Shown here one piece after another: positions 1,510 through 15,344 of a DNA stretch of 64,000 bases. Both the position numbers and the translations under genes were made by a program. Every line of letters starts with the position of its first letter. The first letter of the stretch is position 1. Where the stretch lies: positions 5,043-69,042 of the forward strand of contig JBCBRS010000014.1 of the NCBI GenBank assembly GCA_039819545.1, in the 5' to 3' direction. The stretch comes from Pseudomonadota bacterium. GTDB lineage: Bacteria; Pseudomonadota; Alphaproteobacteria; Caulobacterales; Parvularculaceae. The notes under the pieces are model-generated. The model worked only from the letters and a program-made list of their open reading frames with translations, was not told where the DNA came from and ran no database searches.

Positions 1510-2016
1510 TCACGCTATTTTGTGATTGCTTATTGGTAGCTTGCTGAGAATTATTTGAAAAATTTGCAATTCAAAATCTGTATAACGGATCGAAATCATT
1601 GGCGTCCCCGACAGGATTCGAACCTGTGGCCTCCAGATTAGGAATAAGACGCTCTGTTTTACACGGCTCTGGTTGTCATCGATCGGCGCCGTTCGCGTGT
1701 CGATTGTTCCGATCGGAGCCAGCCCCAAAACAATGGCCGCCGCCATGCCGGTGAGTAATTTCAAAATAGACTTGTAGTGATCGCCAGCTCGCGAGGATCC
1801 AGCGCGCCAAATATTGAGACGTAAAAGTGCAACCTGTTCGTCTTCGCCAGCCAGTTTTGCTATCGCAATCATTGTCTCGTCTTTTGGCATAGTCCGGCCG
1901 CTTCGAAGCTGGTTTATCGGGCCGCACGTTATGCCGAGGTTCCGGGCAAGCTCTCGATCCGACTTAAAATTGCGTGCTGATTTTGCTGCATCCATGTAAT
2001 CTTGAACGGACTTCAT
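1510..2016 (-). CDS. XRE/Cro-CI-type HTH repressor of the element with a C-terminal hydrophobic helix. The ORF end is an integration artefact, because reading runs through the att core into chromosomal DNA.
   Basis: The N-terminus SDRELARNLGITCGPINQLRSGRTMPKDETMIAIAKLAG fits the HTH_XRE pattern. A hydrophobic LLTGMAAAIVLGLAPIG segment follows. AAGAGG lies upstream of the ATG at 2016. The gene is divergent from the early operon. Confidence 0.7.
   Translation of the reverse strand: MKSVQDYMDAAKSARNFKSDRELARNLGITCGPINQLRSGRTMPKDETMIAIAKLAGEDEQVALLRLNIWRAGSSRAGDHYKSILKLLTGMAAAIVLGLAPIGTIDTRTAPIDDNQSRVKQSVLFLIWRPQVRILSGTPMISIRYTDFELQIFQIILSKLPISNHKIA
1600..1645 (-). other. Displaced 3' half of tRNA-Arg(CCT): the chromosomal arm of the att site, not a complete tRNA
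   Basis: The reverse complement reads ATTCCTAATCTGGAGGCCACAGGTTCGAATCCTGTCGGGGACGCCA. That is anticodon loop, variable region, T-arm ACAGG/CCTGT, acceptor 3' strand CGGGGAC, then G and CCA. No D-arm or 5' acceptor strand follows. Confidence 0.8.
1630..1645. repeat. att core copy 1 (CCTCCAGATTAGGAAT)
   Basis: 16-bp exact direct repeat of 15073-15088. Sequence identity stops on both sides of the core. Confidence 0.85.
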
Positions 2017-2121
2017 ATTAACCTCTTGTTAACCATTCGAGCCAGATGGTGCTTGAAACGCCTCGCAAATCACTTTGGTGGTTCACGAGGCGGATCGAAA
2101 ACCGGAGGCTCTTACGTGACG

Positions 2122-2391
2122 TTATCCAACCCAATATACCAAAAACGTACCCACCAGGCCCGCCAGCCCGATAAGGCCAGTGTGCGTGTTTGCCCATTGG
2201 CTGATCATCGGTATGCAGCGCGATTGCGTCGGCGCCGGGCGCCACGGGGCCACAAGTTTCGTTTCATGCGGCCGCCAGTCCTGCGGGCCTGCGGTCACGG
2301 GTTCGGTGGGAATAGTAATGACTTTGGGCGCGCCTGGCCTGTCGTCCGGGCACGCGTCGATGACGGCCCGCTTTACGCTTACATTGTGCAT
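2122..2391 (-). CDS. Possible small tail-anchored membrane protein upstream of the repressor (the start could be 2514 instead)
   Basis: The ORF has fairly GC-rich third positions and a C-terminal LIGLAGLVGTFLVYWVG helix. The long version would abut the plus-strand early gene start, so the internal ATG is preferred. No recognisable family. Confidence 0.25.
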   Translation of the reverse strand: MHNVSVKRAVIDACPDDRPGAPKVITIPTEPVTAGPQDWRPHETKLVAPWRPAPTQSRCIPMISQWANTHTGLIGLAGLVGTFLVYWVG

Positions 2392-2516
2392 AGGTTTTTG
2401 TGCATGTCCTTTGCCGGTGTTGGCGTCGCCGGTGGTGGGGTGCGACCCGCCACCGGCACTCAATTTCGAAACGATAGGCCGGACTCGGCAAAAAATGCAA
2501 GCCGGAGGGCTCATTG

Positions 2517-2894
2517 ATGACCCCCGTTGTCTTGCTCTTCGCGGCCGCCGTCCTGTTTCTGATCCTAATCGCGCGCCGCAATGCGCGCCTTAAATTCCGC
2601 TCGCTGCGCTTGACCAGTTCGCTCTCCGGCGTTCGTGATGTGCGGGCGGAACGCACCGGTGGCGATGTAAGAGCCGCCGCCGGTGCACCCTTTATCCCCC
2701 CCGCCGCTGGCGCTGATGGTCGGGCGGCCTATCCAGGCCCCCCGGCCGTCATGCTGGTGGAAGTTGAGTGCATATCGTGCGGCAAGCCGACCCGGTTTCC
2801 TCACACCTTCCCCGTTTCAGCTGCTGCGCAAATAGTCTGTCCCCATTGCGGCGCGCGCGGCTTTGAAGTTGTCGTCCGGGAAATGGCCGCATGA
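2517..2894 (+). CDS. Early protein with N-terminal TM helix and C-terminal CxxC...CxxC zinc ribbon
   Basis: GGAGGG lies 7 nt upstream of the ATG at 2517. Hydrophobic segment VVLLFAAAVLFLILIA, then ECISCGK...VCPHCG. Confidence 0.5.
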   Translation: MTPVVLLFAAAVLFLILIARRNARLKFRSLRLTSSLSGVRDVRAERTGGDVRAAAGAPFIPPAAGADGRAAYPGPPAVMLVEVECISCGKPTRFPHTFPVSAAAQIVCPHCGARGFEVVVREMAA

Positions 2895-3097
2895 CCATAT
2901 CGATCTTGATGCTGACCTTTCACGCCATTGTTGCTCTCGCGTTTTCATGGGTCATGCTGAACGCCATTTTTCGGAAACGATGGTGGGGCATGGTGCTGAT
3001 ATCGGCTTGGGCCGTGTGTGTCCTGTCCACGCTAAATTGGGTCGAGGTCGTTTTTGGCTTTGGAATGTTTCAGCAAGTGATCTGCGGTGCTTCATGA
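2891..3097 (+). CDS. Small early membrane protein (2 predicted TM helices)
   Basis: ATGA overlap with the preceding ORF. Hydrophobic segments ILMLTFHAIVALAFSWVML and MVLISAWAVCVLSTL. Confidence 0.45.
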   Translation: MTISILMLTFHAIVALAFSWVMLNAIFRKRWWGMVLISAWAVCVLSTLNWVEVVFGFGMFQQVICGAS

Positions 3098-3594
3098 TTG
3101 ATTTGTTTCAAGAATTGGCTACGTGCCGGTTTGGTCAGCCTGATGTTGTTGATATCTCAAGACCAGTAGGTGAGGCGCTTTGGTTTATCCAAGATCATCC
3201 GCATTCAGAAATATACGCTGAAGCAACCGGGCGGCCTGACAAAATCTATCGTGTGCTTTCACGCTATCGCCACAAATTGGACAATCGCTCTTATGGGCGT
3301 TGGGTTGAGGCGAACGGGTTGCTTGATCTGGCAAGAATGATTGCTGTCACTGAACAATCTGGGCCGGGTGGTGAGGGCGGATTGCGCCTAGAGGATGTGT
3401 CGGTTTTTGTGGTCGGCGTCTATGAGGCGCCGCGCCGCAAGCCAGTCGTTCTTTCGGAAGAGGAGGCGCTAGCGCAGTCGCAACAAGAGCGTGAGCGCTG
3501 GTGGAAAGAATACGGCGTAAGCGGATTAACGGACCAGCAAAAGCAAGAGCGCTTTGATACGTGGGCGGAAAGACAGGTGAGAAATGATGCCTAG
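3095..3594 (+). CDS. Hypothetical early protein (166 aa from the internal ATG of ORF 2863..3594)
   Basis: The ATG at 3095 overlaps the stop of the preceding ORF. No recognisable motif. Confidence 0.45.
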
Positions 3595-3802
3595 TTGCGA
3601 TAAATGCCAGTTTTTTACTGCGGCGCACTTTGATGAATTTACAGAAAAGTGCGTTGCTGGTTTTTGCCGCGCAAGGCCACCAATTTCCTCCGGCCACGGT
3701 GAGTTAATTAAGCTGGACAACGGACAATACGGCTTTGAGGGCGTGTTTCCGATTGTAATGTCAAATAATCACTGCGGCTACTTTAGAAAAAAGGTAATAT
3801 GA
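3584..3802 (+). CDS. Small Cys-rich early protein (72 aa)
   Basis: Overlaps its neighbours at both ends. Contains CDKC...C...C...HC; unknown family. Confidence 0.45.
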   Translation: MMPSCDKCQFFTAAHFDEFTEKCVAGFCRARPPISSGHGELIKLDNGQYGFEGVFPIVMSNNHCGYFRKKVI

Positions 3803-4026
3803 TGAACTTTGACAAAGCCACTGTAAGTCATGATGTGAATGGTATTGAGTTATTATACACAAAAGATGGAAGTGTTTTTGGTATTCAGGCTTTGGGGGCT
3901 GATGATCTTCGCCATGTGCTTTGTACCAAGCTTTGGGCGTCGGCACTCATTGAGATGGTCTGCGGCGCTGCCAATTACCTTCGCCAGTCCGGGCAACCTG
4001 GCATCATTACGTTGATGATCGATTGA
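3799..4026 (+). CDS. Small hypothetical early protein (75 aa)
   Basis: ATGATGA overlap with the upstream ORF. No motif recognised. Confidence 0.4.
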   Translation: MMNFDKATVSHDVNGIELLYTKDGSVFGIQALGADDLRHVLCTKLWASALIEMVCGAANYLRQSGQPGIITLMID

Positions 4027-4238
4027 CCGCCCGCGTTGGACATATAGACCCTGAAAAGCACCCGTGTTTTCAAACGCTGATCGCAATCCAGCTGCTGAAT
4101 AAGGCTGGTGTTGAATGTCTTTTTCAATCGCATTTAGTGCGCATTTCTCGGGATCTGGGGCTCATAGAGCGTTCCGATACGCTTCCGTGTGGCTGGAAAA
4201 TTACTGCCACCGGCATCGACGTTCTGACGTCGTATTAG
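4023..4238 (+). CDS. Small winged-helix-like DNA-binding protein (71 aa)
   Basis: LVRISRDLGLIERSDTLPCGWKITATGIDVL resembles the recognition helix plus wing of MarR/PadR-type wHTH proteins. TTG start overlaps the upstream stop. Confidence 0.45.
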   Translation: MTARVGHIDPEKHPCFQTLIAIQLLNKAGVECLFQSHLVRISRDLGLIERSDTLPCGWKITATGIDVLTSY

Positions 4239-4255
4239 AGGTTGGAGCCGGTCAC

Positions 4256-5623
4256 TTGATAGAAACGCAAATAGAGTTACCCCCCCTACCCGAAACGAAC
4301 CCGCAAACGTGGGAGAGGATATCATCCCGCGACACGTCTGATGCCGAGGCGCACCAGGCCCGTGATGCTCGCGTGAAGCGCCGCGACAGTCGCAATGATC
4401 GATATCGCCTTCGAAAGACCGCCGGGCGGCTCATGGGAGGGCGAGTGGCGCAATGCGGCTGTACCAGGCACCATTCGCACGTCGAAATCTGGCGCTCGAA
4501 AACGGGAGGCGGCAAAGCTGAATTTCGTGGGCTGACCACATGCGGCTCGATTTGGTCTTGTCCTGTCTGTGCGGGAAAAATAGCCGCAAAGCGCGCTGGG
4601 GAGGTCGCCAGCCTCGTGCGGGCCCACGAGAAGGCGGTCTACGCTGCTCATGAAAGCCGGGAGGCCTGTACCTTCATGGCGACCCTTACGCTGAAACATC
4701 ACGTCCGAATGGGAGCCAAGAACACGCGGGACACCGTGGCGGTTGCGTGGCGAAACATGCAAGCCGGGGCACCCTGGGTGCGGCTGAAAGGCCGGTATGG
4801 GATCATCGGCATGGTACGCGCCCTGGAAGTCACCCACGGGGGCAATGGCTGGCACCCGCACCTTCACGTCTTGATCATGACCGATCAACCGCTGACTGAT
4901 GGCGAGCGCGAAGCCATGGCGGATGAAATCTATGCCCGCTGGGAGACCAAAGTCGAAAAGCTTGGCCATAGCTGCACGCGTGACGGTTTTGATCTGCGCA
5001 CCTGCCGGGGCCGCACTGGTGCCGCCGAATACGTCGCGAAATGGGGAGCCGGTGCTGAAATTGCCAAAGGCGCGTCGAAGGAGGCAAAGTCGGGCTCCCG
5101 CTCCCCCTGGCAATTTCTGCGGGCCTATCAACGCGGCAACCGCAAGGCTGGTGCGCTGTTTGCCGAGTATGCGAAGGCTTTCAAAGGCGCGCGGCACCTG
5201 ACGTACACGTCTCAAATTCGCGAGCGCTACGGCCTGCGCGAGACGGCCGATGCTGACCTAGCCGCGCAGTCTGAAATCGAAGTCGGCGAGACCCCGGAGT
5301 TGTGCATCGCGCTGTCCCCTGGGGCGTGGTTCGAAGTGTGCGCCCGCGAGGGGCAGAACGGCATGACCCTGCAGGCCGAAATCCTCTACGCGGCTGAAAT
5401 CGGTGGAAAGGATGCGGTTCTTGCCATTCTGATCCGTGAAGGCATTGACCCCGATCTGCCCCGGTCCTGGAAACCGCCCGGCACCAAAGGGTGGCGACCC
5501 TACACCGTTCCGAAATCGCAGCGCGATGAAGCCCGCGAAGCCGGTTTCCGAAAAACCTATCCACAATTTTGGGAGCGGTTCACCGCCACCACCACCGATC
5601 ACGCGTCGACCCATTGGAAATGA
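4256..5623 (+). CDS. HUH rolling-circle replication initiator (pC194/pUB110-pIJ101-like motif set) with an N-terminal zinc finger. The ORF-track start at 4115 is an alternative.
   Basis: Zinc-finger CGSIWSCPVCAGK; motif 1 FMATLTLKH; motif 2 HPHLHVLI (HUH); motif 3 AEYVAKWG (catalytic Tyr plus Lys). The TTG at 4256 has GGAG 8 nt upstream and avoids a 124-nt overlap with the preceding gene. Confidence 0.8.
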   Translation: MIETQIELPPLPETNPQTWERISSRDTSDAEAHQARDARVKRRDSRNDRYRLRKTAGRLMGGRVAQCGCTRHHSHVEIWRSKTGGGKAEFRGLTTCGSIWSCPVCAGKIAAKRAGEVASLVRAHEKAVYAAHESREACTFMATLTLKHHVRMGAKNTRDTVAVAWRNMQAGAPWVRLKGRYGIIGMVRALEVTHGGNGWHPHLHVLIMTDQPLTDGEREAMADEIYARWETKVEKLGHSCTRDGFDLRTCRGRTGAAEYVAKWGAGAEIAKGASKEAKSGSRSPWQFLRAYQRGNRKAGALFAEYAKAFKGARHLTYTSQIRERYGLRETADADLAAQSEIEVGETPELCIALSPGAWFEVCAREGQNGMTLQAEILYAAEIGGKDAVLAILIREGIDPDLPRSWKPPGTKGWRPYTVPKSQRDEAREAGFRKTYPQFWERFTATTTDHASTHWK

Positions 5624-5624
5624 T

Positions 5625-6044
5625 ATGAAGCCCCCTAGCGGAACCCATCTTTTGTACACCGAATGCCCCGAATGCAGCGCGCGCGTGAGTGTGCGGCGTA
5701 CAAAGACAAACCGGCTCTTGTGGTCCTGCAATGGCGTTGCCGATCCCCACGGCCGCCGGTGCGGCGCGCTCCACACCTACGGAAACATCCTTACCGCTCA
5801 AATTATCAAAGAGGTCGAAAATGACGGACACGGACAAGATCAAGAACATGCTGCAACAAGGAGCGTCCCCGCAAGCCGTGACGGCAGCGCAAGTGGACAA
5901 GGTGAAGGCAAAAGTGACATCCACCCAGGAAGCGAACCAGCAACCACAACCGAGCCCGTCGCCACAGCCGCAACCCCAGCCGACACCCCAATCGACACCA
6001 AGCCCGGAAGTAAACCAAAACCCGGAATTCTCGAACCCTGGTGA
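5625..6044 (+). CDS. Small zinc-ribbon protein. The 3' part overlaps the next gene and may be a spurious extension.
   Basis: MKPPSGTHLLYTECPECSARVSVRRTKTNRLLWSCNG...RRCG. After about 5820 the other reading frame has the more GC-rich third positions. Confidence 0.4.
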   Translation: MKPPSGTHLLYTECPECSARVSVRRTKTNRLLWSCNGVADPHGRRCGALHTYGNILTAQIIKEVENDGHGQDQEHAATRSVPASRDGSASGQGEGKSDIHPGSEPATTTEPVATAATPADTPIDTKPGSKPKPGILEPW

Positions 6045-6507
6045 TGACGATTTGATAATTGGGCTGGACGGCTTTGCCCAAGAGCCTGGCGCCGATCCGC
6101 TGGATGCTGGCCCTAAGTTCGTTTCAACCGCTGAGTTTTACCAGTCGTTCTGCGGGCTCTTTCAAATGATGCATATGGGCATCGCTTCGCAGACTGGCAT
6201 CACGCTTGATGCGTTGGCGGTCGAAAACAACCCGGGCACGCGCGGCGCGTCTGATGCGCTGTATCGTATCTGCGAGCGTGTCCATTTTCTCCGGCCTATT
6301 ATTAGTGAGGAAACAGGCCTTGCTCGCGATGCGTTCACGGTGCTGATGTTTGGCGGCACTATTGCCTATGCGGCGTCGGCTGAATTCCAGGCAAAGCGGC
6401 CGTCATTGCCACCGGTGCTCAATGCTGAGACCGACGCCACGCCAAGCCCGCCACCTGGTCCCGATGCTTCACCGGCAGCACCGACAAGCCCGCAATTCAG
6501 CCTGTGA
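5821..6507 (+). CDS. Hypothetical protein with a Pro/Gln-rich linker (228 aa)
   Basis: AAAGAGG lies upstream of the ATG at 5821. Contains QQPQPSPSPQPQPQPTPQSTPSPE, followed by a globular C-terminal half. The stop overlaps the ATPase start. Confidence 0.55.
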   Translation: MTDTDKIKNMLQQGASPQAVTAAQVDKVKAKVTSTQEANQQPQPSPSPQPQPQPTPQSTPSPEVNQNPEFSNPGDDDLIIGLDGFAQEPGADPLDAGPKFVSTAEFYQSFCGLFQMMHMGIASQTGITLDALAVENNPGTRGASDALYRICERVHFLRPIISEETGLARDAFTVLMFGGTIAYAASAEFQAKRPSLPPVLNAETDATPSPPPGPDASPAAPTSPQFSL

Positions 6508-7172
6508 GTGCCGGCACTGCCATTGTCCGTTGTGTCTACGGTGTGCGCGGCGGCGGTAAGTCAACGCTCGCGCGCCACCTGGTCGCCAATGACGCGCGCG
6601 TTATCGCCTTTGATCCCCAGCGCGATTATCAGGGGGAGGCCTGGCGCGTTGCCACCACCCGGTCTGAAATCATCGCTGCGCTGAAATCGGAGGGCCTTTC
6701 CCGGTTTCGAATATCGTATTGCTTTGATACCGGAACCACTGATCCCGTTTCCGAAATGGTATGGCTTGCCGATGTCATCGCCCACCTCCAAAAAAAATAT
6801 AGATCGGACGGTATCGGTCTGTCCCTAGTCGTTGATGAGGCGCATGAGGCTTTTCCAAACCGCCCGCTCTCAAAAGACGAAGGCCCGCTCCGGCGTCTCG
6901 TGATGCAAGGCCGTCACCTGGGCGTGGGGCTCACTGTAGTGACACAACGGCCTGCCAACATCTCCACCATGATTAGATCGCAGGCAACCGAGGTTTACGC
7001 GCTGGCCTTGTCGCGGCGTGATGATCGCGTCGCCGCGGCGGATTTGCGCGAGGGCGCGGCCCCAGCTGTTGCATCTCTTTCCGGCTATGACTTTGTAAAA
7101 ATCACGCCGCAAGGGCATTCTGTGTGCCGATTGTCCCTGGAAACCGGGGAAATCCGCGCAATTACCCAATAA
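6504..7172 (+). CDS. FtsK/HerA-type P-loop ATPase, likely genome-packaging ATPase (222 aa)
   Basis: Walker A GVRGGGKST, Walker B LSLVVDEAHE, and VTQRPANIS (an FtsK-like motif). The small size and lack of a TM helix fit the PRD1/PM2 P9 class rather than the inovirus Zot class. Confidence 0.7.
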   Translation: MSAGTAIVRCVYGVRGGGKSTLARHLVANDARVIAFDPQRDYQGEAWRVATTRSEIIAALKSEGLSRFRISYCFDTGTTDPVSEMVWLADVIAHLQKKYRSDGIGLSLVVDEAHEAFPNRPLSKDEGPLRRLVMQGRHLGVGLTVVTQRPANISTMIRSQATEVYALALSRRDDRVAAADLREGAAPAVASLSGYDFVKITPQGHSVCRLSLETGEIRAITQ

Positions 7173-7242
7173 AATACCCTTACCAAATACCCCTACCCAG
7201 AATTTCTTGCGTTCTCGCGCGGCGTGCGCGCCATATCCCGCC

Positions 7243-7368
7243 ATGAACAACGCTTCAAAAATTGTCCAATTCCTCGCGATTGTCATCGCTGGGCATCTGG
7301 CCGTCGAGTTCATCGCCAAGCCGTTGGTGATGAGTATTCGCAATAATTCTGAGGACCAACCATCATGA
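7243..7368 (+). CDS. 41-aa single-TM protein (below the ORF-track size cutoff)
   Basis: MNNASKIVQFLAIVIAGHLAVEFIAKPLVMSIRNNSEDQPS. ATGA coupling to the next ORF. Confidence 0.45.
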   Translation: MNNASKIVQFLAIVIAGHLAVEFIAKPLVMSIRNNSEDQPS

Positions 7369-7496
7369 AATCATCCATCAAAATGATCGCCTACGCCGCC
7401 ATAGGTACCTATCTCGCGGGCTTTATCCTCGCGGCCACATACCGAATGCCTGGCCTGAAAACCGCCAGCGATGGTTTTAACGGTCGCGGCATCTAA
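7365..7496 (+). CDS. 43-aa single-TM protein (below the ORF-track size cutoff)
   Basis: MKSSIKMIAYAAIGTYLAGFILAATYRMPGLKTASDGFNGRGI. Confidence 0.45.
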   Translation: MKSSIKMIAYAAIGTYLAGFILAATYRMPGLKTASDGFNGRGI

Positions 7497-7532
7497 ACCG
7501 CACCTGTCAGTACACAGACAAGGAACAAAAAC

Positions 7533-8450
7533 ATGAGTGAAACGGTAGCTGCGGTCACCCCGTTAACCCAGGCGTCGTACCGGGACCATATCTTTCCCGA
7601 CTTTGAAAACGTCGCGCCTGGCGATACGGCCACCATGCGAGAGCAACGCGGGTACATGTACCATTACGTTGACCTCAAATTGTCAGGCGGCTTGCTACCG
7701 TCTCACCTGTCAAACATCCGCGTGAAGGTTTCCGATACGGAAATTTATACAAGCCTTCGCGGCGCTGATCTTGATGTCGTCAACTTCTTTCACGGCTTTG
7801 ATGACGCCGAAACGGTCGCTACAGTGCGCATCCCGTTCGCCGCGCCTGGGCTTAAAAACCCGCTTGATGAAATCGAAACCTCGCTCAATATCCAGGTTCC
7901 CGATCCCGTGACCGGCGTTGTCTTTACGCACTTCGACGTCGAGGTCGATATCGCCGACAATGCACCGGCAACCGCGCGTCTCAAAGCCGTTGGTGCCCGT
8001 CAAGCGGCCGCTCTTAACATCGGCCCTGGTATCGTTCGCCAAATGCGCGCCTATCGCCAGCTCATTCCGGCGGAAGGTGAATTTACAATGCGCGATATCG
8101 TGACGCCTGGCCTGCCCATCGCATCGCGACAGTTCCTCAATGGGCTCTATATGAACATCGACCCCCGCAATGTTCGTGAAATCATCCTTACCCGGAGCGG
8201 GCGGCAAGAATTCCGTCTTGATCCCATTCAGAACGAAATCAACCAGCGCGCGCTTGGTAAAAAGCCGGTCGCAAACTGGACAATCATTGATTTTCGAAAA
8301 GAAGGCCTGGGTTATTCTGGCGTCGATTTGCGCCAGCAAACCAACGACTTTGACTTGCGAGTGCAAGTGCAAAACCGGCCCGATGGTACGGTTCCGCCTA
8401 ATAGCTTCCGCTATCTCACTGACATGACGGGCGTTCCTGTAATCAACTAA
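7533..8450 (+). CDS. Major capsid protein candidate (305 aa, beta-rich; suspected double jelly-roll, PM2 P2-like)
   Basis: AAGGAA lies upstream of the ATG. There is no TM segment. YVDLKLSGGLLPSHLSNIRVKVSD and the C-terminal IIDFRKEGLGYSGVDL...DLRVQV resemble my recollection of PM2 P2. The gene sits after the ATPase and before the membrane-protein genes. Confidence 0.55.
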   Translation: MSETVAAVTPLTQASYRDHIFPDFENVAPGDTATMREQRGYMYHYVDLKLSGGLLPSHLSNIRVKVSDTEIYTSLRGADLDVVNFFHGFDDAETVATVRIPFAAPGLKNPLDEIETSLNIQVPDPVTGVVFTHFDVEVDIADNAPATARLKAVGARQAAALNIGPGIVRQMRAYRQLIPAEGEFTMRDIVTPGLPIASRQFLNGLYMNIDPRNVREIILTRSGRQEFRLDPIQNEINQRALGKKPVANWTIIDFRKEGLGYSGVDLRQQTNDFDLRVQVQNRPDGTVPPNSFRYLTDMTGVPVIN

Positions 8451-8482
8451 GCGCTTTTGGGCGCATACTGAGGGTTTCTCTC

Positions 8483-8803: not shown

Positions 8804-8807
8804 TCTC

Positions 8808-8987
8808 ATGTTGCCATTGCCCTCTCTCGGTTTTTCTACCACGCGCATTCTTGAAGGAATGAGCGGGGAGGTAGCTTTTGGCTCTAACGTGTTCGCGCCG
8901 TTTTCCCGGTCTGGTCCATCGCCGCTAATTGTCGGCATTGTTGCGGTAGCCGCTGTTGCTGCCACGGCGCTCGTGGTGAGGTCGTAA
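8808..8987 (+). CDS. 59-aa protein with C-terminal TM anchor (below the ORF-track cutoff)
   Basis: MLPLPSLGFSTTRILEGMSGEVAFGSNVFAPFSRSGPSPLIVGIVAVAAVAATALVVRS. The stop abuts the next ATG. Confidence 0.45.
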   Translation: MLPLPSLGFSTTRILEGMSGEVAFGSNVFAPFSRSGPSPLIVGIVAVAAVAATALVVRS

Positions 8988-9734
8988 ATGCTACCGACCA
9001 TTGTAACCGGAAAAAAATCAAACAATCCCATCACGCTTGCTGAAGAACGCAATCTTAACAATGCCGTTGCGGAAGATGCCATCGGGTTGACCGTAAGCGG
9101 AATGAACGTCATTTCCATTGGTGATGAGGGCTTAATCACGCGCGCGGCCGATCTTGCCGATGATGTTTCGCGGCGCGGTTTGTCCGTTGCCGAAAACGTC
9201 GCTGACCAGGCTTTTGATCTCGGCCGTGACTTTGTGGATGCGGGCGCATCCGCCGTACGCGATGCGGGCCGCATCGGCCTAGAAGGTGTGCAGTCCTCGG
9301 CTGATCTTGCCTTCATGGGGCTTTCGGAGGCCACCGGTCTAAGTGCTCGCTCTTTGCGCGAGGCAAGCGAAATCGCCCGCGATGCCGTTGATCGCAGCGC
9401 GGAAATTTCCTTTGCTGGTCTGCGTGAGGCGCAAGCCCTGGGCCGTGAGGGGCTGGGCGTCGCCGGTGATGCATTCCGCACCACCACCGAGAATAACCGC
9501 ACCGCTTTCGAGTTTGGGGCTCTGGCGCTACAGACAACCGCCGACGTCGCCCGCGATGCGGTCGAAGCAAGCGAACAATCGTCATCTGGTGCGTTCAACC
9601 TGGGCAATATCCGCTCGCAAGTGCCCGCCGAGACAATTAGCGCGCAAAGTGCAAACACTGGCACCGTCGTTGTTATCGGTGCGGTCGTTGCCGTTGTTGC
9701 CGTCACTTTCATGCTGACGCGGGGGCGCTCGTGA
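8988..9734 (+). CDS. Ala/Asp/Arg-rich helical repeat protein with C-terminal TM anchor (248 aa)
   Basis: Recurrent A-x-D-x-A/G-R periodicity. C-terminal VVVIGAVVAVVAVTFML. Confidence 0.6.
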   Translation: MLPTIVTGKKSNNPITLAEERNLNNAVAEDAIGLTVSGMNVISIGDEGLITRAADLADDVSRRGLSVAENVADQAFDLGRDFVDAGASAVRDAGRIGLEGVQSSADLAFMGLSEATGLSARSLREASEIARDAVDRSAEISFAGLREAQALGREGLGVAGDAFRTTTENNRTAFEFGALALQTTADVARDAVEASEQSSSGAFNLGNIRSQVPAETISAQSANTGTVVVIGAVVAVVAVTFMLTRGRS

Positions 9735-10192
9735 GAATTCCCCAGGCAACAACGCTTGCCGAAATTGCTGCGCGTGGCCGTCGATCAACGGCCGCCGTCG
9801 AAGGTCGTATGCTGACAGATGGCGCAGAGCGCATGGCGTCAAATGCTGTGCGCGAAACCGTGGCTGCTGAGGCCAGGCAAGGTGCGGCGCAGATGCCGTT
9901 TCAGAACGTCGCGTCACAGCGCGGCGGGTCTGTGTTTTCCGCCGTTGCACAGCGTAGTCTTGTGCTTGCGTCAGGTCAGTCGCGCGTTGTTCGTGTTAAC
10001 TCAAGTTCGGTTCAGTATTTAGACAGTACAGTTCCCGCCGCGTTCTTGTTTGTTCGTGTCGAACAAAACGAAGAAATCCGTATGCGGCTCGGTGATGTCC
10101 TCACCTTTGGCCAGCCTTTTAAGACCATAGAAGTTCGCGCTGGGCAGGATATGGAAGTCATCATGCAGTTTGGTTTCAACGCAGAAAGGTAA
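9731..10192 (+). CDS. 153-aa protein with a beta-rich C-terminal half (possible vertex/penton protein)
   Basis: GTG start overlaps the upstream stop. The C-terminal segment RVVRVNSSSVQYLDSTVPAAFLFVRVEQNEEIRMRLGDVLTFGQPFKTIEVRAGQDMEVIMQFGF looks like a single jelly-roll-sized beta domain. The function is inference only. Confidence 0.5.
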   Translation: MRIPQATTLAEIAARGRRSTAAVEGRMLTDGAERMASNAVRETVAAEARQGAAQMPFQNVASQRGGSVFSAVAQRSLVLASGQSRVVRVNSSSVQYLDSTVPAAFLFVRVEQNEEIRMRLGDVLTFGQPFKTIEVRAGQDMEVIMQFGFNAER

Positions 10193-10196
10193 CCCC

Positions 10197-10349
10197 ATGC
10201 CCACACCGTCAACCGCCCCAGAAGAAAACGCCAAGCGTGAAAACGCAAAAGCGCAAAATCCGTCAACGCCTTCGCCGCTAATGAATGACGCGCCTGCGCC
10301 TCAATCAGGTGAGCATGGCGTTCTGAATTCCAATCCGCAAACCGACTAA
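10197..10349 (+). CDS. 50-aa Pro/Asn-rich peptide (below the ORF-track cutoff)
   Basis: MPTPSTAPEENAKRENAKAQNPSTPSPLMNDAPAPQSGEHGVLNSNPQTD. Fills the gap between flanking genes. Confidence 0.3.
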   Translation: MPTPSTAPEENAKRENAKAQNPSTPSPLMNDAPAPQSGEHGVLNSNPQTD

Positions 10350-10355
10350 AGGTCT

Positions 10356-11006
10356 TTGTTCGTGGAAATCATCATCGCCTTTTTGGTTCTGTCGTTTGCC
10401 GGTATCTTTGCGGTGCTGGAAGCGCGCGCGGCAAATGCTGCGCCGGTGCCGCGCCGTGAACCAACTCTACGGCCCGCGCCTGTTCGCGACGCGCAAGGTG
10501 ATGATGATCCACAAGCGGGCAATGGCGGTGACAGTCCTGGCACCAATATTGGGCCAGCACTTGTGTCGGCCGCCACGCGCGCTCGCGAAATTGATGTCAC
10601 CGCACGGACGTTGTGGGGTGAGGCGCGCGGTGAAGGTTCTGGCGGCATGATTGCAGTCGCGCGTGTTATTCGAAACCGTGTCTTGTCAAGTCGTTATCCG
10701 AACACGTTTGAAGCCGTCTGTATGCAGCGCTTTCAGTTTTCGGTCTGGAATGATGGCGGCGCAGCGTTGCTCGCAGTTGGTCTGTCTGATCGTGCTTTTG
10801 TTGATGCGATACGCATTGCCAGTGAGGCGGTTGACGGCACCTTGCCGCCCGATGATCGTTTCAGCCCCAACGATAATGGAGAGGTTCTCCACTATCTTAA
10901 TCCTGATCCTGCGCTTTATCCGTCGGGCCGACTTCCGTCCTGGGCCTTTGCGGCAAGCGAGGCGCATGACATTGGCCGTCACCGATTTTTAAGAGGCGTA
11001 GCATGA
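10356..11006 (+). CDS. SleB-type cell-wall hydrolase (Hydrolase_2 family) with an N-terminal membrane anchor
   Basis: ARTLWGEARGEGSGGMIAVARVIRNRV...FEAVCMQRFQFSVWND is the SleB/CwlJ-type signature. N-terminal IIIAFLVLSFAGIFAVL. Confidence 0.75.
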   Translation: MFVEIIIAFLVLSFAGIFAVLEARAANAAPVPRREPTLRPAPVRDAQGDDDPQAGNGGDSPGTNIGPALVSAATRAREIDVTARTLWGEARGEGSGGMIAVARVIRNRVLSSRYPNTFEAVCMQRFQFSVWNDGGAALLAVGLSDRAFVDAIRIASEAVDGTLPPDDRFSPNDNGEVLHYLNPDPALYPSGRLPSWAFAASEAHDIGRHRFLRGVA

Positions 11007-11332
11007 ACGAAATTGACAATATCCGCCGGGCCACAGTCACGACGATTGCGGCACCCTTTCAGTTTCTAAACGGGCTCGCAATCAATGGCGGCCGGATCCT
11101 CGGGCAAGGGCTCGATTTTAACGGCGATGGCAAAATCAATTTTAGCGATGTTGGTGCCGGTGTATCTGCCGCTGGGCGCGCAGTGACTGGCGCTGCCCGC
11201 ACGGCCGTTGAACCCGTCGCAAGGGCCGCGCGCGGTCTTGATCCTTCGCCTTCGTCGTCTCCGGTGGTGCCGCTGGCGGCCGTCGTTGCTGCCGGTGCGG
11301 CTGGTTACTTCATTTTCAAAAGGCTCAAGTAA
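11003..11332 (+). CDS. Membrane protein with C-terminal TM anchor (109 aa)
   Basis: C-terminal VVPLAAVVAAGAAGYFIF. Confidence 0.55.
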   Translation: MNEIDNIRRATVTTIAAPFQFLNGLAINGGRILGQGLDFNGDGKINFSDVGAGVSAAGRAVTGAARTAVEPVARAARGLDPSPSSSPVVPLAAVVAAGAAGYFIFKRLK

Positions 11333-11481
11333 TGGTTCTTTTAATTCGTGGACTGACCATCGTAGGCGGTACTATCCTGGGTTTTCTCGGTATTGGTGCA
11401 ATCTCCCAAACCGAACAACTTTTGCGCGCCGCTGTGCCTGTCATGTTGATTGGCGGAACGCTCTACCTGATCTCGCGTTAA
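11332..11481 (+). CDS. 49-aa two-TM protein (below the ORF-track cutoff)
   Basis: MVLLIRGLTIVGGTILGFLGIGAISQTEQLLRAAVPVMLIGGTLYLISR. TAATG overlap with the upstream ORF. Confidence 0.45.
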   Translation: MVLLIRGLTIVGGTILGFLGIGAISQTEQLLRAAVPVMLIGGTLYLISR

Positions 11482-11498
11482 TCTGAGGAGTACCGGCA

Positions 11499-13241
11499 AT
11501 GCCACAACCAAGTCCCCTTTTCGGCGGCGGCTCCACAGGCGGCGGCGCGCCAACTGGCGGCGGCGGAAACCCGCCCGCTGGTATGCTATCCGCGTCCGGC
11601 TTGCGCGAAATCTCGCGCGCCGCTGGTCTGCCCACAATCTTTGGCGACACCATCGCTGGCGATGCAACGCCCGATCTGCGCGCCGCGCTTGTTGATCACA
11701 TAACGGCCGGGGGCGGTGATTTTCTGATTGCTGGAAAGTATGACTTTCAAACGCCGCTGATCATTGATGACATTGATACCGACATGAAGATCCGCGGCGA
11801 TGATCGCACCGCGCTTACGGTCTCGATGGTAGATGACTTTTTGCAGCTATCAACGCTATTTACCGGTGGTCCGTCCCCAGAAGAAATCGACGTTATCAAA
11901 CTGCATGATTTGCGCTTTGTTGCTGGGGTGCCTGGCGCGGGTCGCGCTTTTGATCTGCGCTTTCCTGATTATGGAAACGTGCTCAGCCGCTCCACGTCAA
12001 TTAAGAATATCACCGGCAACATCAAGCAAACGTCGGGCGAATTCCCTACAGGGGAGTACTGGGCAAACTTCTGTAGACTGACAAATCCATGGCGTGGACA
12101 GTATTCGAACATCTACTGCATGGGGCCATACGGGCCAAATCCTGCGGGCGGTACGCTTGATCTAATCCCCGGCGGCACAGGCCTGGAAATCGCGGGCCGC
12201 GCCTTTGTGTCGATCTTTGATGATTGCGCCTTTTGGACGTTTACGGAAGGCATGGTTCTTGGTCGCGGCCGCGATGGTAGCGCGGGCGCAAGCAATATTC
12301 TTGATGACTTTGAGGAGTTCGTCTTTCGCGAATGCCGCGCGGTACAGTGTACCAATGGTATTGTGGTTCATCCAAACGGCTTGCAACCTGGTGGCCGCGT
12401 CCAGGGTGGTCATTTCAATTGCACCGAAAACAATATCATGATGACGGGCATCCGGTCGGCATCGGTTGCTGATGTGCTTCTCTATGATGATGTAAAGGAC
12501 CGCGCTAATCCTTTTCTCGGGCAGCATGTGGACCTTCGGTTTGTCAACTGCAAAGAGATGAACGTTAAGGGAAACACCACGCGCGGTATGTCATCTGATG
12601 CCGGTCAACGGGCTTTTGTCCGTGCGGAAAGTGGTTCTGAGAACCTAATTTCGGAAGGCAACACAATCGGACAACGTGACTTCCGCTACATTGTCGCCAA
12701 CGCCGCCGCAAACGGTACCCTCGGGCCTGATAAGCTTATCGCGCCAGAAAACGCCAAAATCACGGGCGCTCCGCAATCGGTCGTCGGTCACTATTTTATC
12801 AAGCCAAAAGCGACTGTCGTTCAAAACGTATCGGCACAGACAATCGCAACCGGCGGTGCTGGTGCGGCCGCCCTCGAGTTGCAGACGGCCGCGCAACAAC
12901 TTGTTGGTGATTGGTGGAATGCGGCCAACCCAACCAGGTTAACCGTACCAGCTGAGCGCGCGGTGCGGTTTGTCAAAATCAACGCCACGGTGCGCTTCGC
13001 CCCCAATGCTGTTGGAACGCGCCGTGTCCGTGTGCTGAAAAACGGCGCTGTGGCCGCTGGCTTGCCCGATGAAATCGTCATGGCCGCTGGTGCTGGTCCA
13101 ACCCATGTGACGCTTTCCGCCGATAGTATCCCGGTGGCTGATGGAGACTACTTCGAGGTCTTTGTCGAGCAATCCTCCGGCGGGGATCTGCAGACGGTTC
13201 CAGGTCTTGGAACCTTTGTCACTATTCAATCCGAGACATGA
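11499..13241 (+). CDS. Spike / receptor-binding protein candidate (580 aa, Gly-rich N-terminus, beta-helix-like body)
   Basis: GAGGAG lies upstream of the ATG. N-terminal GGGSTGGGAPTGGGGNPPAG. It is the largest structural ORF and has no TM segment. The repetitive beta-strand-like sequence is reminiscent of pectate-lyase-fold phage spikes. Confidence 0.55.
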   Translation: MPQPSPLFGGGSTGGGAPTGGGGNPPAGMLSASGLREISRAAGLPTIFGDTIAGDATPDLRAALVDHITAGGGDFLIAGKYDFQTPLIIDDIDTDMKIRGDDRTALTVSMVDDFLQLSTLFTGGPSPEEIDVIKLHDLRFVAGVPGAGRAFDLRFPDYGNVLSRSTSIKNITGNIKQTSGEFPTGEYWANFCRLTNPWRGQYSNIYCMGPYGPNPAGGTLDLIPGGTGLEIAGRAFVSIFDDCAFWTFTEGMVLGRGRDGSAGASNILDDFEEFVFRECRAVQCTNGIVVHPNGLQPGGRVQGGHFNCTENNIMMTGIRSASVADVLLYDDVKDRANPFLGQHVDLRFVNCKEMNVKGNTTRGMSSDAGQRAFVRAESGSENLISEGNTIGQRDFRYIVANAAANGTLGPDKLIAPENAKITGAPQSVVGHYFIKPKATVVQNVSAQTIATGGAGAAALELQTAAQQLVGDWWNAANPTRLTVPAERAVRFVKINATVRFAPNAVGTRRVRVLKNGAVAAGLPDEIVMAAGAGPTHVTLSADSIPVADGDYFEVFVEQSSGGDLQTVPGLGTFVTIQSET

Positions 13242-13244
13242 TCC

Positions 13245-13541
13245 GTGCCCGTCGAAACGCTTCCCCGCTCCACGTTCCGTCCCGATTTTATTGCGGTCAT
13301 CGTCGCAATGGGCGCGCACCTGGCCGCATCTGCCTTTTGGGCTGGTCAAATTGGGGCCCAAGTAAGCGCGGTTCAGGACCGCATAGATAATGCCGTATCG
13401 CCAATGGCGCAGCGCGTAGCGGCTACGGAAGCCGAGTTGATCCGCCGCGATGGATGGATGGGTCAAATGGAAACCCGTGCCGCAAAAATGGAAACCAGGA
13501 TCGAGGTGATCCAATCAAAACTAGAAAGGGACGTACCATGA
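13245..13541 (+). CDS. N-terminal TM plus coiled-coil protein (98 aa)
   Basis: FIAVIVAMGAHLAASAFWAG, followed by heptad-like METRAAKMETRIEVIQSKLE. Confidence 0.5.
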   Translation: MPVETLPRSTFRPDFIAVIVAMGAHLAASAFWAGQIGAQVSAVQDRIDNAVSPMAQRVAATEAELIRRDGWMGQMETRAAKMETRIEVIQSKLERDVP

Positions 13542-13807
13542 CGTTTTTTAAGAACAGACTACAAGAGGCTTCTACCTGGGCAGGCCTGCCGATGATTATG
13601 GTTGGCATTACGTCGCTACTCGGTATGGGGCAGCGCAAGGCCGAAATCGCCACCCAGGTGGGCGAACAAATTGGCGGCGCGGTTGCGTCGGGCTTGCCCT
13701 GGTGGCAAGGCGCGCTTATCGCGGGCACCGGCCTGGTCATGTCGGTTGGCCGCGAGGCCGGATCGCCTGACAAGCCCTTGCCGCCAACTGTAGGGGGTGG
13801 CCAATGA
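13538..13807 (+). CDS. Two-TM small membrane protein (89 aa, holin-like topology)
   Basis: The ATGA-coupled ATG at 13538 has AAAGGGA upstream. Hydrophobic segments WAGLPMIMVGITSLLG and WWQGALIAGTGLVMSV. Confidence 0.5.
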   Translation: MTFFKNRLQEASTWAGLPMIMVGITSLLGMGQRKAEIATQVGEQIGGAVASGLPWWQGALIAGTGLVMSVGREAGSPDKPLPPTVGGGQ

Positions 13808-13914
13808 AGGGGCGTAAGGCCAACGGCCAATTAAAAAAGGGATATCGCCTCACAAAATCTGGGGTGCGCAAAGTCACGAAAAAGCGAACCACGAAGCGCC
13901 GCCGTCGGCGATAA
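13804..13914 (+). CDS. 36-aa extremely basic peptide (below the ORF-track cutoff)
   Basis: MKGRKANGQLKKGYRLTKSGVRKVTKKRTTKRRRRR. ATGA coupling to the upstream ORF. Confidence 0.35.
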   Translation: MKGRKANGQLKKGYRLTKSGVRKVTKKRTTKRRRRR

Positions 13915-13928
13915 GAAAGGAAGATAAA

Positions 13929-14120
13929 ATGTCTGATCCACTAAGAAAAGAACACCGTGAGCTGACAGAAAAAGAAAAAAATGACATAAGCTTTATTAAG
14001 CAGCTTGCTGAAGATTTGCTCAATGCGATTGAAGAAACAGGCTCTGGGCGCGAGCAATCAATTGCAAAAACCAACATCGAACAAGCCGTCATGTGGGCGG
14101 TAAAGGGCGCTACAGCGTGA
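13929..14120 (+). CDS. 63-aa acidic helical protein between the structural/lysis genes and int (moron position)
   Basis: AAGGAAG lies upstream of the ATG. MSDPLRKEHRELTEKEKNDISFIKQLAEDLLNAIEETGSGREQSIAKTNIEQAVMWAVKGATA. The 3' end overlaps the int stop region by 11 nt (convergent genes). Confidence 0.55.
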   Translation: MSDPLRKEHRELTEKEKNDISFIKQLAEDLLNAIEETGSGREQSIAKTNIEQAVMWAVKGATA

Positions 14121-14964
14121 CAAGACTTTCCACATGACTTGACCACAAAGAGAGCGCCTCGCGGCGCTCTTTTTCGTATGAGTACTGATTATAAACCGCG
14201 TCTATTGGATCTGTGCCGGTTTTGTGATTGACCACCCGGTGCGCGATGTCGCGTGAGACGCCCAGCCGCGCAAGCCCGGTATAAAACGTCCGTCGAAGGT
14301 CGTGAAACACCCAGGGCGGCCCCTCCCAATAGGTCATAAGGCGCGCATGGGCCCGCGAAAAACCGCTCTTAGGCTGCGCGCAGCGTGGCGCGCAGGGGTA
14401 GGGGGCCGACACGTCGATCTGAGCGCGGGTGAAGTGAGTGAGGTGCACTGTGTGAGGCCGTCCGTTCTTTGTTTGGCCCGCCGATACCGTCCAGGTCTCG
14501 CGCTCGATGTCGCCGCGCTGGATCCTGGCGCACTCACCACGTCGTTGCCCAGTGAGAAGCGCAAGCCGATAAACAGGCGTAAAAGATCGCCCGTGCGCAT
14601 CCAGAAGCCGCCATACGCGCACTACCTCACAGTCTGACAAAACGCGCGTACGGGCCGCCAGTGGTCGCGGGCCGCGCATTCCGGCCATGGGGTTCTGATC
14701 GACGTATCCATAATTGTGAAGCCACCCCATCATCGCCCGGCTAACTCGAAACGCATTGCCCTTGGTGCCGGGTCGGTCTCGATGCGCCACTAGGACTTGA
14801 GCAAAGTCGGCCCTCGTGAGGTCCTGTGCGGCCGTTTTTGGTAGGTGTGGCAGAATGTCGCGTTTCACCACCATTTTAGTCTTCTGCGCCGACTTCATAA
14901 ATGCAACGTGCTCGGACAAATAGACCTCCGCAAGTGCGTGCAATGTGTGTCGATACTGACCCAT
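14110..14964 (-). CDS. Tyrosine recombinase (phage integrase family)
   Basis: LLTGQRRGE (catalytic Arg box), HDLRRTF (H-x-x-R), HRVVNH and the C-terminal YNQYSY (catalytic Tyr region). Lies directly adjacent to the tRNA 3' end. Confidence 0.85.
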   Translation of the reverse strand: MGQYRHTLHALAEVYLSEHVAFMKSAQKTKMVVKRDILPHLPKTAAQDLTRADFAQVLVAHRDRPGTKGNAFRVSRAMMGWLHNYGYVDQNPMAGMRGPRPLAARTRVLSDCEVVRVWRLLDAHGRSFTPVYRLALLTGQRRGECARIQRGDIERETWTVSAGQTKNGRPHTVHLTHFTRAQIDVSAPYPCAPRCAQPKSGFSRAHARLMTYWEGPPWVFHDLRRTFYTGLARLGVSRDIAHRVVNHKTGTDPIDAVYNQYSYEKERREALSLWSSHVESLVTL

Positions 14965-15042
14965 ATAAGCCCCCCAAAACTATATTATGGAAGCCCGCCA
15001 TCGGGTGAGTATAGATCTGATCAATTTGACACAAAATTGAAA

Positions 15043-15119
15043 TGGCATCCCCGCCTGGATTTGAACCAGGGACCTCCAGATTAGGAATCTGATGCTCTAT
15101 CCTGCTGAGCTACGGGGAC
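15043..15119 (-). tRNA. tRNA-Arg (anticodon CCT), chimeric: 5' part chromosomal, 3' part supplied by the integrated element
   Basis: GTCCCCG-TA-GCTC-AGCAGGATA-GAGC-A-TCAGA-TTCCTAA-TCTGG-AGGTC-CCTGG-TTCAAAT-CCAGG-CGGGGAT-G-CCA folds as a cloverleaf. Pair 1:72 is G-U. Confidence 0.85.
15073..15088. repeat. att core copy 2 (CCTCCAGATTAGGAAT)
   Basis: Exact repeat of 1630-1645. Lies in the anticodon-loop to variable-region part of the tRNA. Confidence 0.85.
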
Positions 15120-15196
15120 CCTTCCTTTCCAATACCAGTTTTTCTGTTGGATGAGAATTCCCCGGGGGCCTGGTAGCTTTTCAGGTGCCTTCCCTA

Positions 15197-15232: not shown

Positions 15233-15344
15233 CTACTCACTGTGGGGTATGGTGGGGTATCTTCTTGGGAGAAGATGAGAGGATAATCAGTCCCACACCT
15301 TAACAATTGGTTAACATGCTGAATCCTCTGAATTTTTTTGCCTA

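Follow-up and report, generated by a model that had tools for sequence, protein, structure and literature searches.

A probable, apparently intact Vinavirales prophage in a tRNA-Arg gene of an uncultured alphaproteobacterium

The DNA analysed here is a stretch of 64,000 nucleotides (nt) of contig JBCBRS010000014.1, which is called the window in the following. Near its left end it carries an element of 13,443 base pairs (bp) that ends inside a gene for tRNA-Arg(CCT) and encodes a capsid protein of the double jelly-roll type, a packaging ATPase, a rolling-circle replication initiator, an integrase and a series of small membrane proteins. Coordinates are given on the window. The GC content of the element is 56.6%, that of the host part of the window 56.0%. 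The best named matches of the host transketolase are found in Parvularculaceae, Hyphococcus and Amphiplicatus with about 70% identity. The host is therefore alphaproteobacterial; it is an uncultured, marine-type relative of Parvularculaceae and Hyphococcus.

Both ends of the element are marked by the 16-mer CCTCCAGATTAGGAAT, which occurs at 1630-1645 and at 15073-15088 and nowhere else in the window. The spacing of the copies is 13,443 bp, and none of 100 dinucleotide-preserving shuffles gave a match. Two identical 16-bp cores that bracket a viral genome integrated in tRNA-Arg(CCT) had been postulated in a preliminary description, and the tRNA gene is indeed called at 15043-15119 on the minus strand by ARAGORN as well as by Rfam (66.1 bits). 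The core corresponds to tRNA positions 31-46, which cover the anticodon loop, its stem's 3' strand and the beginning of the variable loop. The repeat is wider than the core, as 1600-1655 and 15043-15098 share 82% identity over 56 nt, and the left copy thus represents a diverged tRNA 3' half and more than the 16-mer. When 1601-1645 is joined to 15089-15119, a native tRNA-Arg(CCT) of 76 nt is rebuilt, which is accepted by ARAGORN and has the Watson-Crick pair G1-C72. The present tRNA-Arg has G1.U72 and a T-stem that differs compensatorily from the rebuilt one. It is a hybrid of a host 5' part (15089-15119), the attR core (15073-15088) and a phage-borne 3' part (15043-15072), while the displaced native 3' half of the host gene lies on the minus strand at 1600-1645 and ends in attL with the core at 1630-1645. 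As judged from these sequences, this is an integration in a tRNA gene with a foreign replacement 3' half, by which the native half was displaced to the far junction. The att cores together with the displaced native half define the element as 1646-15088, or 13,443 bp as a circle.

Directly beside the tRNA, as the preliminary description had also noticed, a tyrosine integrase of 284 amino acids (aa) is encoded at 14110-14964 on the minus strand (PF00589, 35.8 bits; phrog_1, 7e-40). Its start is only 78 nt away from the tRNA, and it has no N-terminal arm-binding domain. The candidate catalytic residues, which were assigned by eye and not by a structural alignment, are R141, K166, H221-x-x-R224, H247 and the C-terminal tyrosine in YNQYSY. 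The direct repeat of the tRNA 3' part, the integrase gene beside the intact tRNA gene and the candidate R-K-H-R-H-Y residues are all features of tyrosine-recombinase elements that integrate in tRNA genes. An exact-protein look-up returned no record for the integrase, nor for one apparent open reading frame (ORF) of the left flank.

The candidate for the major capsid protein has 305 aa, is encoded at 7533-8450 on the plus strand and belongs to the double jelly-roll type of PM2 P2. It matches both Pfam domains of that protein, P2_N with 46.2 bits and P2_C with 31.4 bits, each above the cut-off of 25 bits. A phmmer search of the PDB revealed PM2 P2 (2vvf, E 8.5e-5) and also entry 9t9v, a 'double jelly roll capsid protein'. 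The identity to PM2 P2 is 25%. An AlphaFold2 model built from a 14-sequence alignment reached a pLDDT of 76.6 and a pTM of 0.75, and with this model Foldseek found PM2 P2 (2vvf) as the best match (E 3.8e-19, TM-scores 0.69/0.77), followed by the double jelly-roll capsids of PBCV-1, PRD1, PR772 and an iridovirus. The resemblance to PM2 P2 had at first been proposed for two segments, YVDLKLSGG..PSHLSNIRVKV and IIDFRKEG..DLRVQV, and both of them align to the matching segments of PM2. The profile and structure searches of 7533-8450, which had been suggested as a check for a double jelly-roll, came out in its favour. Since both P2 domains and the Foldseek match to PM2 P2 are present, the objection that the protein might have no jelly-roll fold fails. 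The NCBI pipeline, in the metagenome-assembled genome labelled Pseudomonadota bacterium, likewise names it 'major capsid protein P2'.

Upstream of the capsid gene a protein of 222 aa is encoded at 6504-7172 (plus strand), which we assign to the P9 type of packaging ATPases within the FtsK/HerA superfamily, as had been proposed from its motifs. GVRGGGKST is found at residue 13, LVVDEAHE at 108 and VTQRP at 146. The alignment of the protein with PM2 P9 reaches from Walker A as far as the sensor motif, with 28% identity over 163 aa (E 7e-8). The P9 proteins of Marinomonas phage YY (E 8e-16) and Jorvik (E 4e-13) are 29-31% identical to it. In the PDB sequence search the best matches are HerA chains (E about 2e-5), and the packaging NTPase B204 of STIV follows with E 0.04. 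PM2 P9 itself has only weak FtsK/HerA matches in Pfam. The best PHROG is phrog_2666 (1.8e-17), which is labelled 'terminase large subunit'. Apart from that label, the ORFs scanned against Pfam and PHROGs contain nothing that matches a large terminase, portal, tail, tape-measure or HK97 capsid protein, in line with the preliminary description. The gene directly in front of the ATPase gene (5821-6507, plus strand, 228 aa) encodes a candidate membrane-vesicle assembly factor. It matches Gp6 of Jorvik (32% over 76 aa, E 1.6e-6) and takes the position of ORF h in PM2 (PMC9502842); a direct match of the 5821-6507 protein to PM2 ORF h was not found.

The order of these genes can be compared with that of PM2, which is Rep, regulators, ORF h, P9, P7, P2, P3/P4/P8, P10, P1, P5/P6 and lysis genes; the late block of Jorvik is arranged in the same way. 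In the element the order is Rep, the 228-aa ORF, the ATPase, a 43-aa transmembrane (TM) protein, the capsid protein, three C-terminally anchored proteins, a 153-aa ORF, a SleB-type hydrolase, two TM proteins, a 580-aa protein and two small hydrophobic proteins. The element thereby shows the features of the order Vinavirales, namely a PM2 P2-family major capsid protein of the double jelly-roll type, a P9-type ATPase encoded just upstream of the capsid gene, and an assembly factor of the ORF-h/PRD1 P10 kind upstream of the ATPase. We consider it very probable that at 1646-15088 a temperate phage of the Vinavirales is integrated, apparently in intact form; such phages are of the PM2 kind, tailless and icosahedral, with an internal membrane and a circular double-stranded DNA genome.

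With the capsid protein, 1.84 billion cluster representatives were searched exhaustively for relatives by HMMER. At E <= 1e-3 this search revealed 88 relatives, only four of which combine an identity of 29-41% with the family-specific features. For three of these four closest relatives contigs could be recovered, here called L011, L014 and L015. L011, which stems from the sequencing series that also yielded the window, contains the nearest capsid protein (41% identity). All three contigs encode an ORF-h homolog directly upstream of the ATPase, the ATPase (39-49% identity), a P7-like protein and the capsid protein in the same order as the window, and L011 additionally has the SleB hydrolase and a P10-like membrane-protein gene at matching positions. 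The replication genes are exchanged among them: Rep_1 proteins are found in the window (4115-5623) and in L014 (6832-8142), and an unrelated protein of about 395 aa with a weak resemblance to Rep_trans in L011 (359-1549) and L015 (270-1448). When the capsid protein was used in a word-indexed homolog search, it matched nothing but itself, and scans with patterns from the capsid alignment gave no match in IMG/VR, GTDB genomes or JGI metagenomes.

At the left end of the element, a candidate repressor of the helix-turn-helix type (XRE/CI-like) is encoded on the minus strand at 1510-2016, divergent from the early genes as had been described before, by an ORF that crosses attL. It matches the transcriptional regulators of phrog_638 (2.6e-20); its Pfam matches, HTH_19 and HTH_3, fall under the curated cut-offs. 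A regulator of 92 aa at the same place in L014 is 31% identical. The roughly 500 bp that separate the repressor start from the first early ORF preceded by a good Shine-Dalgarno sequence (2017-2516; ATG at 2517) have the highest GC content of the element (about 0.60). No convincing gene and no operator repeats were found there, and the segment is presumably a regulatory region. Scans for sigma-70 promoters and terminators gave no more sites than in shuffled sequence, and the Rfam scan returned tRNA only. The early ORFs at 2517-4238 (plus strand) code for a 125-aa protein with a TM helix and a zinc ribbon, and then for proteins of 243, 72, 75 and 71 aa with overlaps of 4 nt. None of them has a family match in Pfam or PHROGs. 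The 72-aa protein has a homolog in L014 (E 1.4e-10). Overlaps of 1-4 nt occur at many places among the early as well as the late ORFs, which agrees with the chain of translationally coupled early ORFs in the preliminary description.

The replication initiator (4115-5623, plus strand; start at 4433 in the NCBI annotation) belongs to the rolling-circle Rep_1 (pC194/pUB110) family of HUH proteins, with 42.5 bits for PF01446 at a cut-off of 33.2 and 4.3e-73 for phrog_11698. The HUH motif HPHLHVL lies at residue 247 and the tyrosine motif EYVAKW at 305, so that its earlier classification as a pC194-like HUH Rep can be kept. It is 51% identical to the Rep of L014.

About ten small ORFs of the element contain one or two hydrophobic helices, where the first count had been about nine. 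A TM ORF of 53 aa (7207-7368, plus strand) follows the ATPase gene. Between it and the capsid gene a 43-aa protein with one TM helix is encoded (7365-7496, plus strand), which is P7-like, as its position is that of P7 in PM2 and homologs occur at the same position in L011 (E 4e-5) and L015 (E 1e-4). Behind the capsid gene, three proteins of 106, 59 and 248 aa with C-terminal TM helices (8483-9734, plus strand) occupy the positions of PM2 P3, P4/P8 and P10 and have homologs in L011 and L014. Position and TM topology of the small membrane proteins fit P7, P3, P8 and P10, and their homologs are confined to the close relatives; the sole match to PM2 among the proteins at these positions is a weak one of the 248-aa protein to P10 (E 0.056). 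An ORF of 153 aa, predicted to be beta-rich, and one of 59 aa follow at 9731-10349 (plus strand), right after the P10-like gene, where PM2 has P1. The 153-aa protein is an unproven penton candidate. BLASTP, Pfam and phmmer searches of the PDB gave no match for it to PM2 P1, Jorvik P1 or a 194-aa protein of L011, and its single-sequence AlphaFold2 model (pLDDT 43) was unusable and discarded.

The SleB-type cell-wall hydrolase at 10362-11006 (plus strand) has an N-terminal TM helix, in agreement with the membrane anchor first proposed for it. It matches Hydrolase_2 (PF07486, 58.7 bits) as well as endolysin PHROGs, and the ortholog in L011 is 37% identical. Two small proteins of 109 and 49 aa with TM helices and without family matches are encoded next (11003-11481, plus strand). 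The 580-aa protein at 11499-13241 (plus strand), which had been described as the spike, is a candidate for a spike or receptor-binding protein because of matches of its C-terminal domain: residues 471-567 match PDB entries 9eul/9euf, 'GP-PDE domain-containing protein / ORF58' (E 1.9e-11), and residues 434-567 match phrog_13989 (virion structural protein) and phrog_11660 (tail protein). These matches suggest that the C-terminal domain could be a module for receptor binding that has been exchanged with tailed phages. The late operon ends, at 13245-13807 (plus strand), with genes for two small hydrophobic proteins of 98 and 89 aa, whose position is like that of P17/P18 in PM2 and Gp20 in Jorvik (PMC9502842, PMC10589892). 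One TM helix is predicted for the 98-aa protein; the 89-aa protein stays under the TM threshold and matches phrog_8494 (1.9e-5). By analogy we infer that both may act in lysis.

Between the late genes and the integrase gene lies an ORF of 63 aa with a good Shine-Dalgarno sequence (13929-14120, plus strand), which encodes a hairpin protein of the Acb2/Tad1 type and is thus a candidate sponge for immune signals. PF24729 is matched with 57.1 bits (cut-off 27, E 2.1e-15) over model positions 2-57 of 58. In the PDB the protein matches 9ptq, 'Acb2 homolog 43' (E 0.002), and Tad1 weakly; it is shorter than the solved Acb2 homolog of 76 aa. The GC content at third codon positions is 0.41, compared with about 0.6 in the neighbouring genes, and due to this low value we consider the gene a moron. 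Acb2 homolog 43 binds 3'cADPR and blocks type I Thoeris (bioRxiv 10.1101/2025.08.24.671296). From its family match, the 63-aa protein probably takes up signalling nucleotides of Thoeris or of the cyclic-oligonucleotide-based anti-phage signalling system (CBASS). In the literature searched, no paper pairs Acb2 with the names of Vinavirales families.

On its left side the element is flanked by the 5' end of a cas9 gene of type II, so that the prophage lies directly beside a host cas9. The N-terminal 419 aa of this Cas9 are encoded at 3-1259 on the minus strand and run off the window start; they contain the RuvC-I motif MKYRLGIDLGTNSLGW and match TIGR01865 with 252.9 bits (E 7.8e-75). A trans-activating CRISPR RNA could be encoded in the 340 nt that separate cas9 from the tRNA fragment. 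Small plus-strand ORFs of the left flank were considered as a second mobile element and rejected, as they are shadows of cas9 on the other strand. On the right side, about 220 bp from the 5' end of tRNA-Arg, an IS630-family element is found at 15342-16388. Its 18-nt terminal inverted repeats are 94% complementary, and the transposase is encoded in two pieces by the overlapping ORFs 15376-15795 (HTH_Tnp_IS630) and 15695-16372 (NF033545, 136.8 bits). Beside it, three genes on the minus strand (16434-22811) form a resistance-nodulation-division efflux operon with an outer-membrane factor of the NodT type, a periplasmic adaptor and a permease of 1082 aa. A HicA-toxin ORF (PF07927) and an adjacent ORF of 100 aa at about 23326-23785 (plus strand; 302-761 of L003, a contig from an independent assembly) are probably a HicAB toxin-antitoxin pair; they lie just upstream of tRNA-Cys(GCA) at 24088-24161.

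From these genes the following life cycle can be proposed, of which the integration is evident from the sequence of the locus and the later steps are derived from homology and gene order. The tyrosine integrase recombined the 16-bp core with tRNA-Arg(CCT), and the phage-borne tRNA 3' half keeps a working hybrid tRNA at attR, with the native half left at attL. The helix-turn-helix repressor at the left end would silence the divergent early operon. Upon induction the prophage would be excised as a circle of 13,443 bp, which the Rep_1 endonuclease would nick for rolling-circle replication. The factor of the ORF-h/Gp6 type and about ten small membrane proteins may then build a lipid vesicle, to be coated by trimers of the double jelly-roll capsid protein, and the FtsK/HerA ATPase of the P9 type would package the DNA. 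The 580-aa spike candidate with its tail-fibre-like C-terminal domain would bind the host, the 63-aa protein of the Acb2/Tad1 type would probably capture CBASS or Thoeris nucleotides, and the SleB-type hydrolase and the small hydrophobic proteins at the operon end would serve wall digestion and lysis.

Several observations weigh against an intact and active phage. No excision junction was found, and the rebuilt native tRNA of 76 nt, used as an exact pattern for the empty attB, had no match in GTDB genomes and none in JGI metagenomes. All proteins of the element are singletons among the 90% clusters of 15 billion sequences and the phage is seen in one sample only, so that its activity and virion properties are argued wholly from homology. 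Two Logan contigs from an independent assembly of run SRR22824285, L002 (window 3796-14080) and L003 (window 15082-24086), are 100% identical to the window. Their ends were considered as a sign of excision and rejected, since L003 ends in tRNA-Arg (15082) and just beside tRNA-Cys (24086), not at the predicted junction, and the ends of L002 within the prophage are without explanation; strain variation or low coverage could be responsible for the latter. The ORF of the repressor lacks a stop ahead of the att core: in the prophage it reads through attL into the displaced tRNA fragment (168 aa) and in the rebuilt circle through attP (159 aa), and integration therefore alters the C-terminus of the repressor. 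There is a single CTTGATA, at 4255, which we take to be a nick motif of the pC194 type; its designation as the replication origin is a guess. Finally, a spike of the P1 type with an N-terminal jelly-roll penton was not detected, as Pfam shows no match to Spike_JR1, Spike_JR2 or Phage_spike_P1 and neither the 153-aa nor the 580-aa protein matches PM2 P1, which carries the Spike_JR1 and Spike_JR2 domains. The missing penton homolog, the missing junction and empty site, and an integrase that is short, devoid of an arm-binding domain and so close to the tRNA would also be expected of a PM2-like prophage that has become defective or domesticated and no longer excises or builds virions. We think this unlikely. 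The recognisable genes are all of full length compared with their homologs (capsid protein 305 aa versus 307 in L011, ATPase 222 aa versus 218-229), about 94% of the element is coding with consecutive genes mostly overlapping by 1-4 nt or at most 40 nt apart, the candidate catalytic residues of the integrase are present, and the two att cores have remained identical. In this order no genes vary more than those of the vertex proteins (PMC10589892, PMC5968719), and it is therefore to be expected that a penton escapes detection by sequence.

Two other interpretations can be weighed against an integrated Vinavirales phage on the gene content. A rolling-circle Rep, tiny membrane proteins, an integrase and an ATPase of the Zot type could together belong to an integrated filamentous phage of the inovirus kind; the best Pfam match of the ATPase is in fact Zot (26.2 bits), and NCBI names it a Zot domain protein. 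The match covers residues 98-165 only, however, while the whole protein aligns with HerA and with P9 of PM2, Jorvik and YY, and no TM segment is predicted in it. A grouping with inovirus Zot proteins, which would have spoken against the preliminary description, is thus not what was found. Together with the strong sequence and structure support for a double jelly-roll capsid and a gene order that is that of PM2, this makes an inovirus extremely improbable, and the reading suggested by the Zot label was rejected. Just as little credit can be given to a non-viral integrative plasmid or genomic island that combines a Rep_1 replicon with captured capsid-like genes. Rep_1 is best known from small plasmids, and cellular double jelly-roll homologs are reported to exist (PMC8812541), but the element contains a full morphogenetic block for which synteny is found in isolated phages as well as in three independent relatives. 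Moreover, the exchange of Reps among the relatives with retention of the structural block is the pattern of the Vinavirales (PMC9502842).

Few tailless phages with a membrane have been isolated, though prophage surveys suggest that they are common in aquatic Proteobacteria. As the att junctions are exactly located, the gene set is complete and the host lineage is defined, it would be possible to synthesise and reboot the genome described here. For phylogenies of the capsid protein and the ATPase it provides a divergent branch, and it illustrates the swapping of replication modules (Rep_1 versus Rep_trans-like) among syntenic relatives. The 63-aa ORF suggests that sponges against CBASS and Thoeris may circulate in non-tailed phages too. 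The current picture of PM2-like viruses is left unchanged by the element.

Concerning its integration, the element resembles those islands and prophages with tyrosine integrases which, as Williams is said to have described in 2002, use the anticodon-loop sublocation of tRNA genes. Like these it has a core over the anticodon loop and the 3' stem, a carried replacement of the tRNA 3' half and an integrase gene adjoining the tRNA, whereas P4-type tRNA integrases differ from the short integrase found here by their typical N-terminal arm-binding domain.

With PM2 (Corticoviridae, genus Merivirus) the element shares the fold and family of the capsid protein, the P9 ATPase, the order of the late genes and rolling-circle replication of a circular genome. 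It had been described as Corticovirus (PM2)-like, and this holds for the kind of capsid and ATPase and for the gene order. Membership in the Corticoviridae in the strict sense (Merivirus with PM2 and Cr39582) does not hold: the Rep belongs to Rep_1 and not to Phage_GPA as P12 of PM2, a SleB hydrolase is found in place of the LytD-type P5, the capsid identity is 25% and the host is an alphaproteobacterium. PM2 is furthermore a lytic phage of a gammaproteobacterium without integrase, and neither its P5 lysin nor its P1 spike with the JR1 and JR2 penton domains was detected in the element, which fits the order Vinavirales and not that family. The best capsid match to an isolate is to Vibrio autolykivirus 1.249.A of the Autolykiviridae (28%; E 1e-14 in tblastn and 2e-20 pairwise). 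Autolykiviruses are lytic and have linear genomes with a protein-primed type B DNA polymerase, in contrast to the rolling-circle Rep and integrase of the element.

Jorvik, which was isolated from Rhodobacter (Bardy et al. 2023, PMC10589892), and Marinomonas phage YY are placed in the Mestraviridae by the ICTV (2025), where the order comprises five families (Corticoviridae, Autolykiviridae, Mestraviridae, Asemoviridae and Parnassusviridae). As temperate, circular, membrane-containing phages of an alphaproteobacterium they resemble the predicted phage. The ATPase of the element is closest to theirs, its assembly factor matches Gp6 of Jorvik, and in Jorvik too a helix-turn-helix regulator of lysogeny adjoins attP. 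However, there is no BLAST match between the capsid proteins. Jorvik has a replicase like that of phage P1, no listed integrase, M15 and Slt lysins and a genome of 8.8 kb in a RuBisCO operon, while the element encodes Rep_1, a SleB hydrolase and a tyrosine integrase of its own and occupies 13.4 kb in a tRNA gene. Due to the capsids, the replicase, the lysins and the differing strand arrangement of the ATPase module it does not belong to the Mestraviridae.

By its host and hydrolase the element agrees with clade A of the five clades (A-E) into which Yutin et al. 2022 (PMC9502842) grouped the Vinavirales capsids. PM2-like prophages with integrases were already described by Krupovic and Bamford 2007 (PMC1950889). 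Clade A is mostly alphaproteobacterial; its hallmark is a SleB-superfamily hydrolase, which replaces the P5 lysin; in this clade ORF-h and the P7-like gene are kept, replication genes are often displaced, and some prophages have divergent Rep_1 endonucleases (PMC9502842). By the published description of such prophages, for example two from Paremcibacter congregatus ZYLT, the element is like them in its alphaproteobacterial host, the P2 capsid, the P9 ATPase with ORF-h upstream, the small membrane protein between the ATPase and capsid genes, SleB instead of P5, Rep_1 (PF01446) and the exchange of replication genes. It differs in that neither a GNAT acetyltransferase nor a P1-type spike was detected in it, that its capsid protein has only four representatives at 29-41% identity and that all of its proteins are singletons. 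Since alphaproteobacterial Vinavirales prophages with SleB and Rep_1 are on record (PMC9502842) and 849 PM2-like prophages have been counted (PMC10589892), the claim that the element stands for an under-described lineage has to be toned down.

As the features of the Corticoviridae are lacking, the capsid and ATPase are nearest to different families and all proteins are singletons, we leave the element unclassified within the Vinavirales, as a prophage of the alphaproteobacterial SleB/Rep_1 type. That the capsid protein shares no more than 28% identity with any isolate, and no more than 41% with any of the 1.84 billion representatives, leads to a more far-reaching reading, which we put forward only tentatively and consider rather doubtful. 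The element would then form, together with L011, L014 and L015, a sixth and unnamed family of the Vinavirales with a vertex unrelated to PM2 P1 (a separate penton and a tail-fibre-like spike), possibly with the first Acb2/Tad1 sponge noted in a tailless membrane-containing phage and with cas9 beside the integration site. In comparison with the systems already described, the element is a clean and rather divergent new example of a known sort of virus, which is common in such bacteria.

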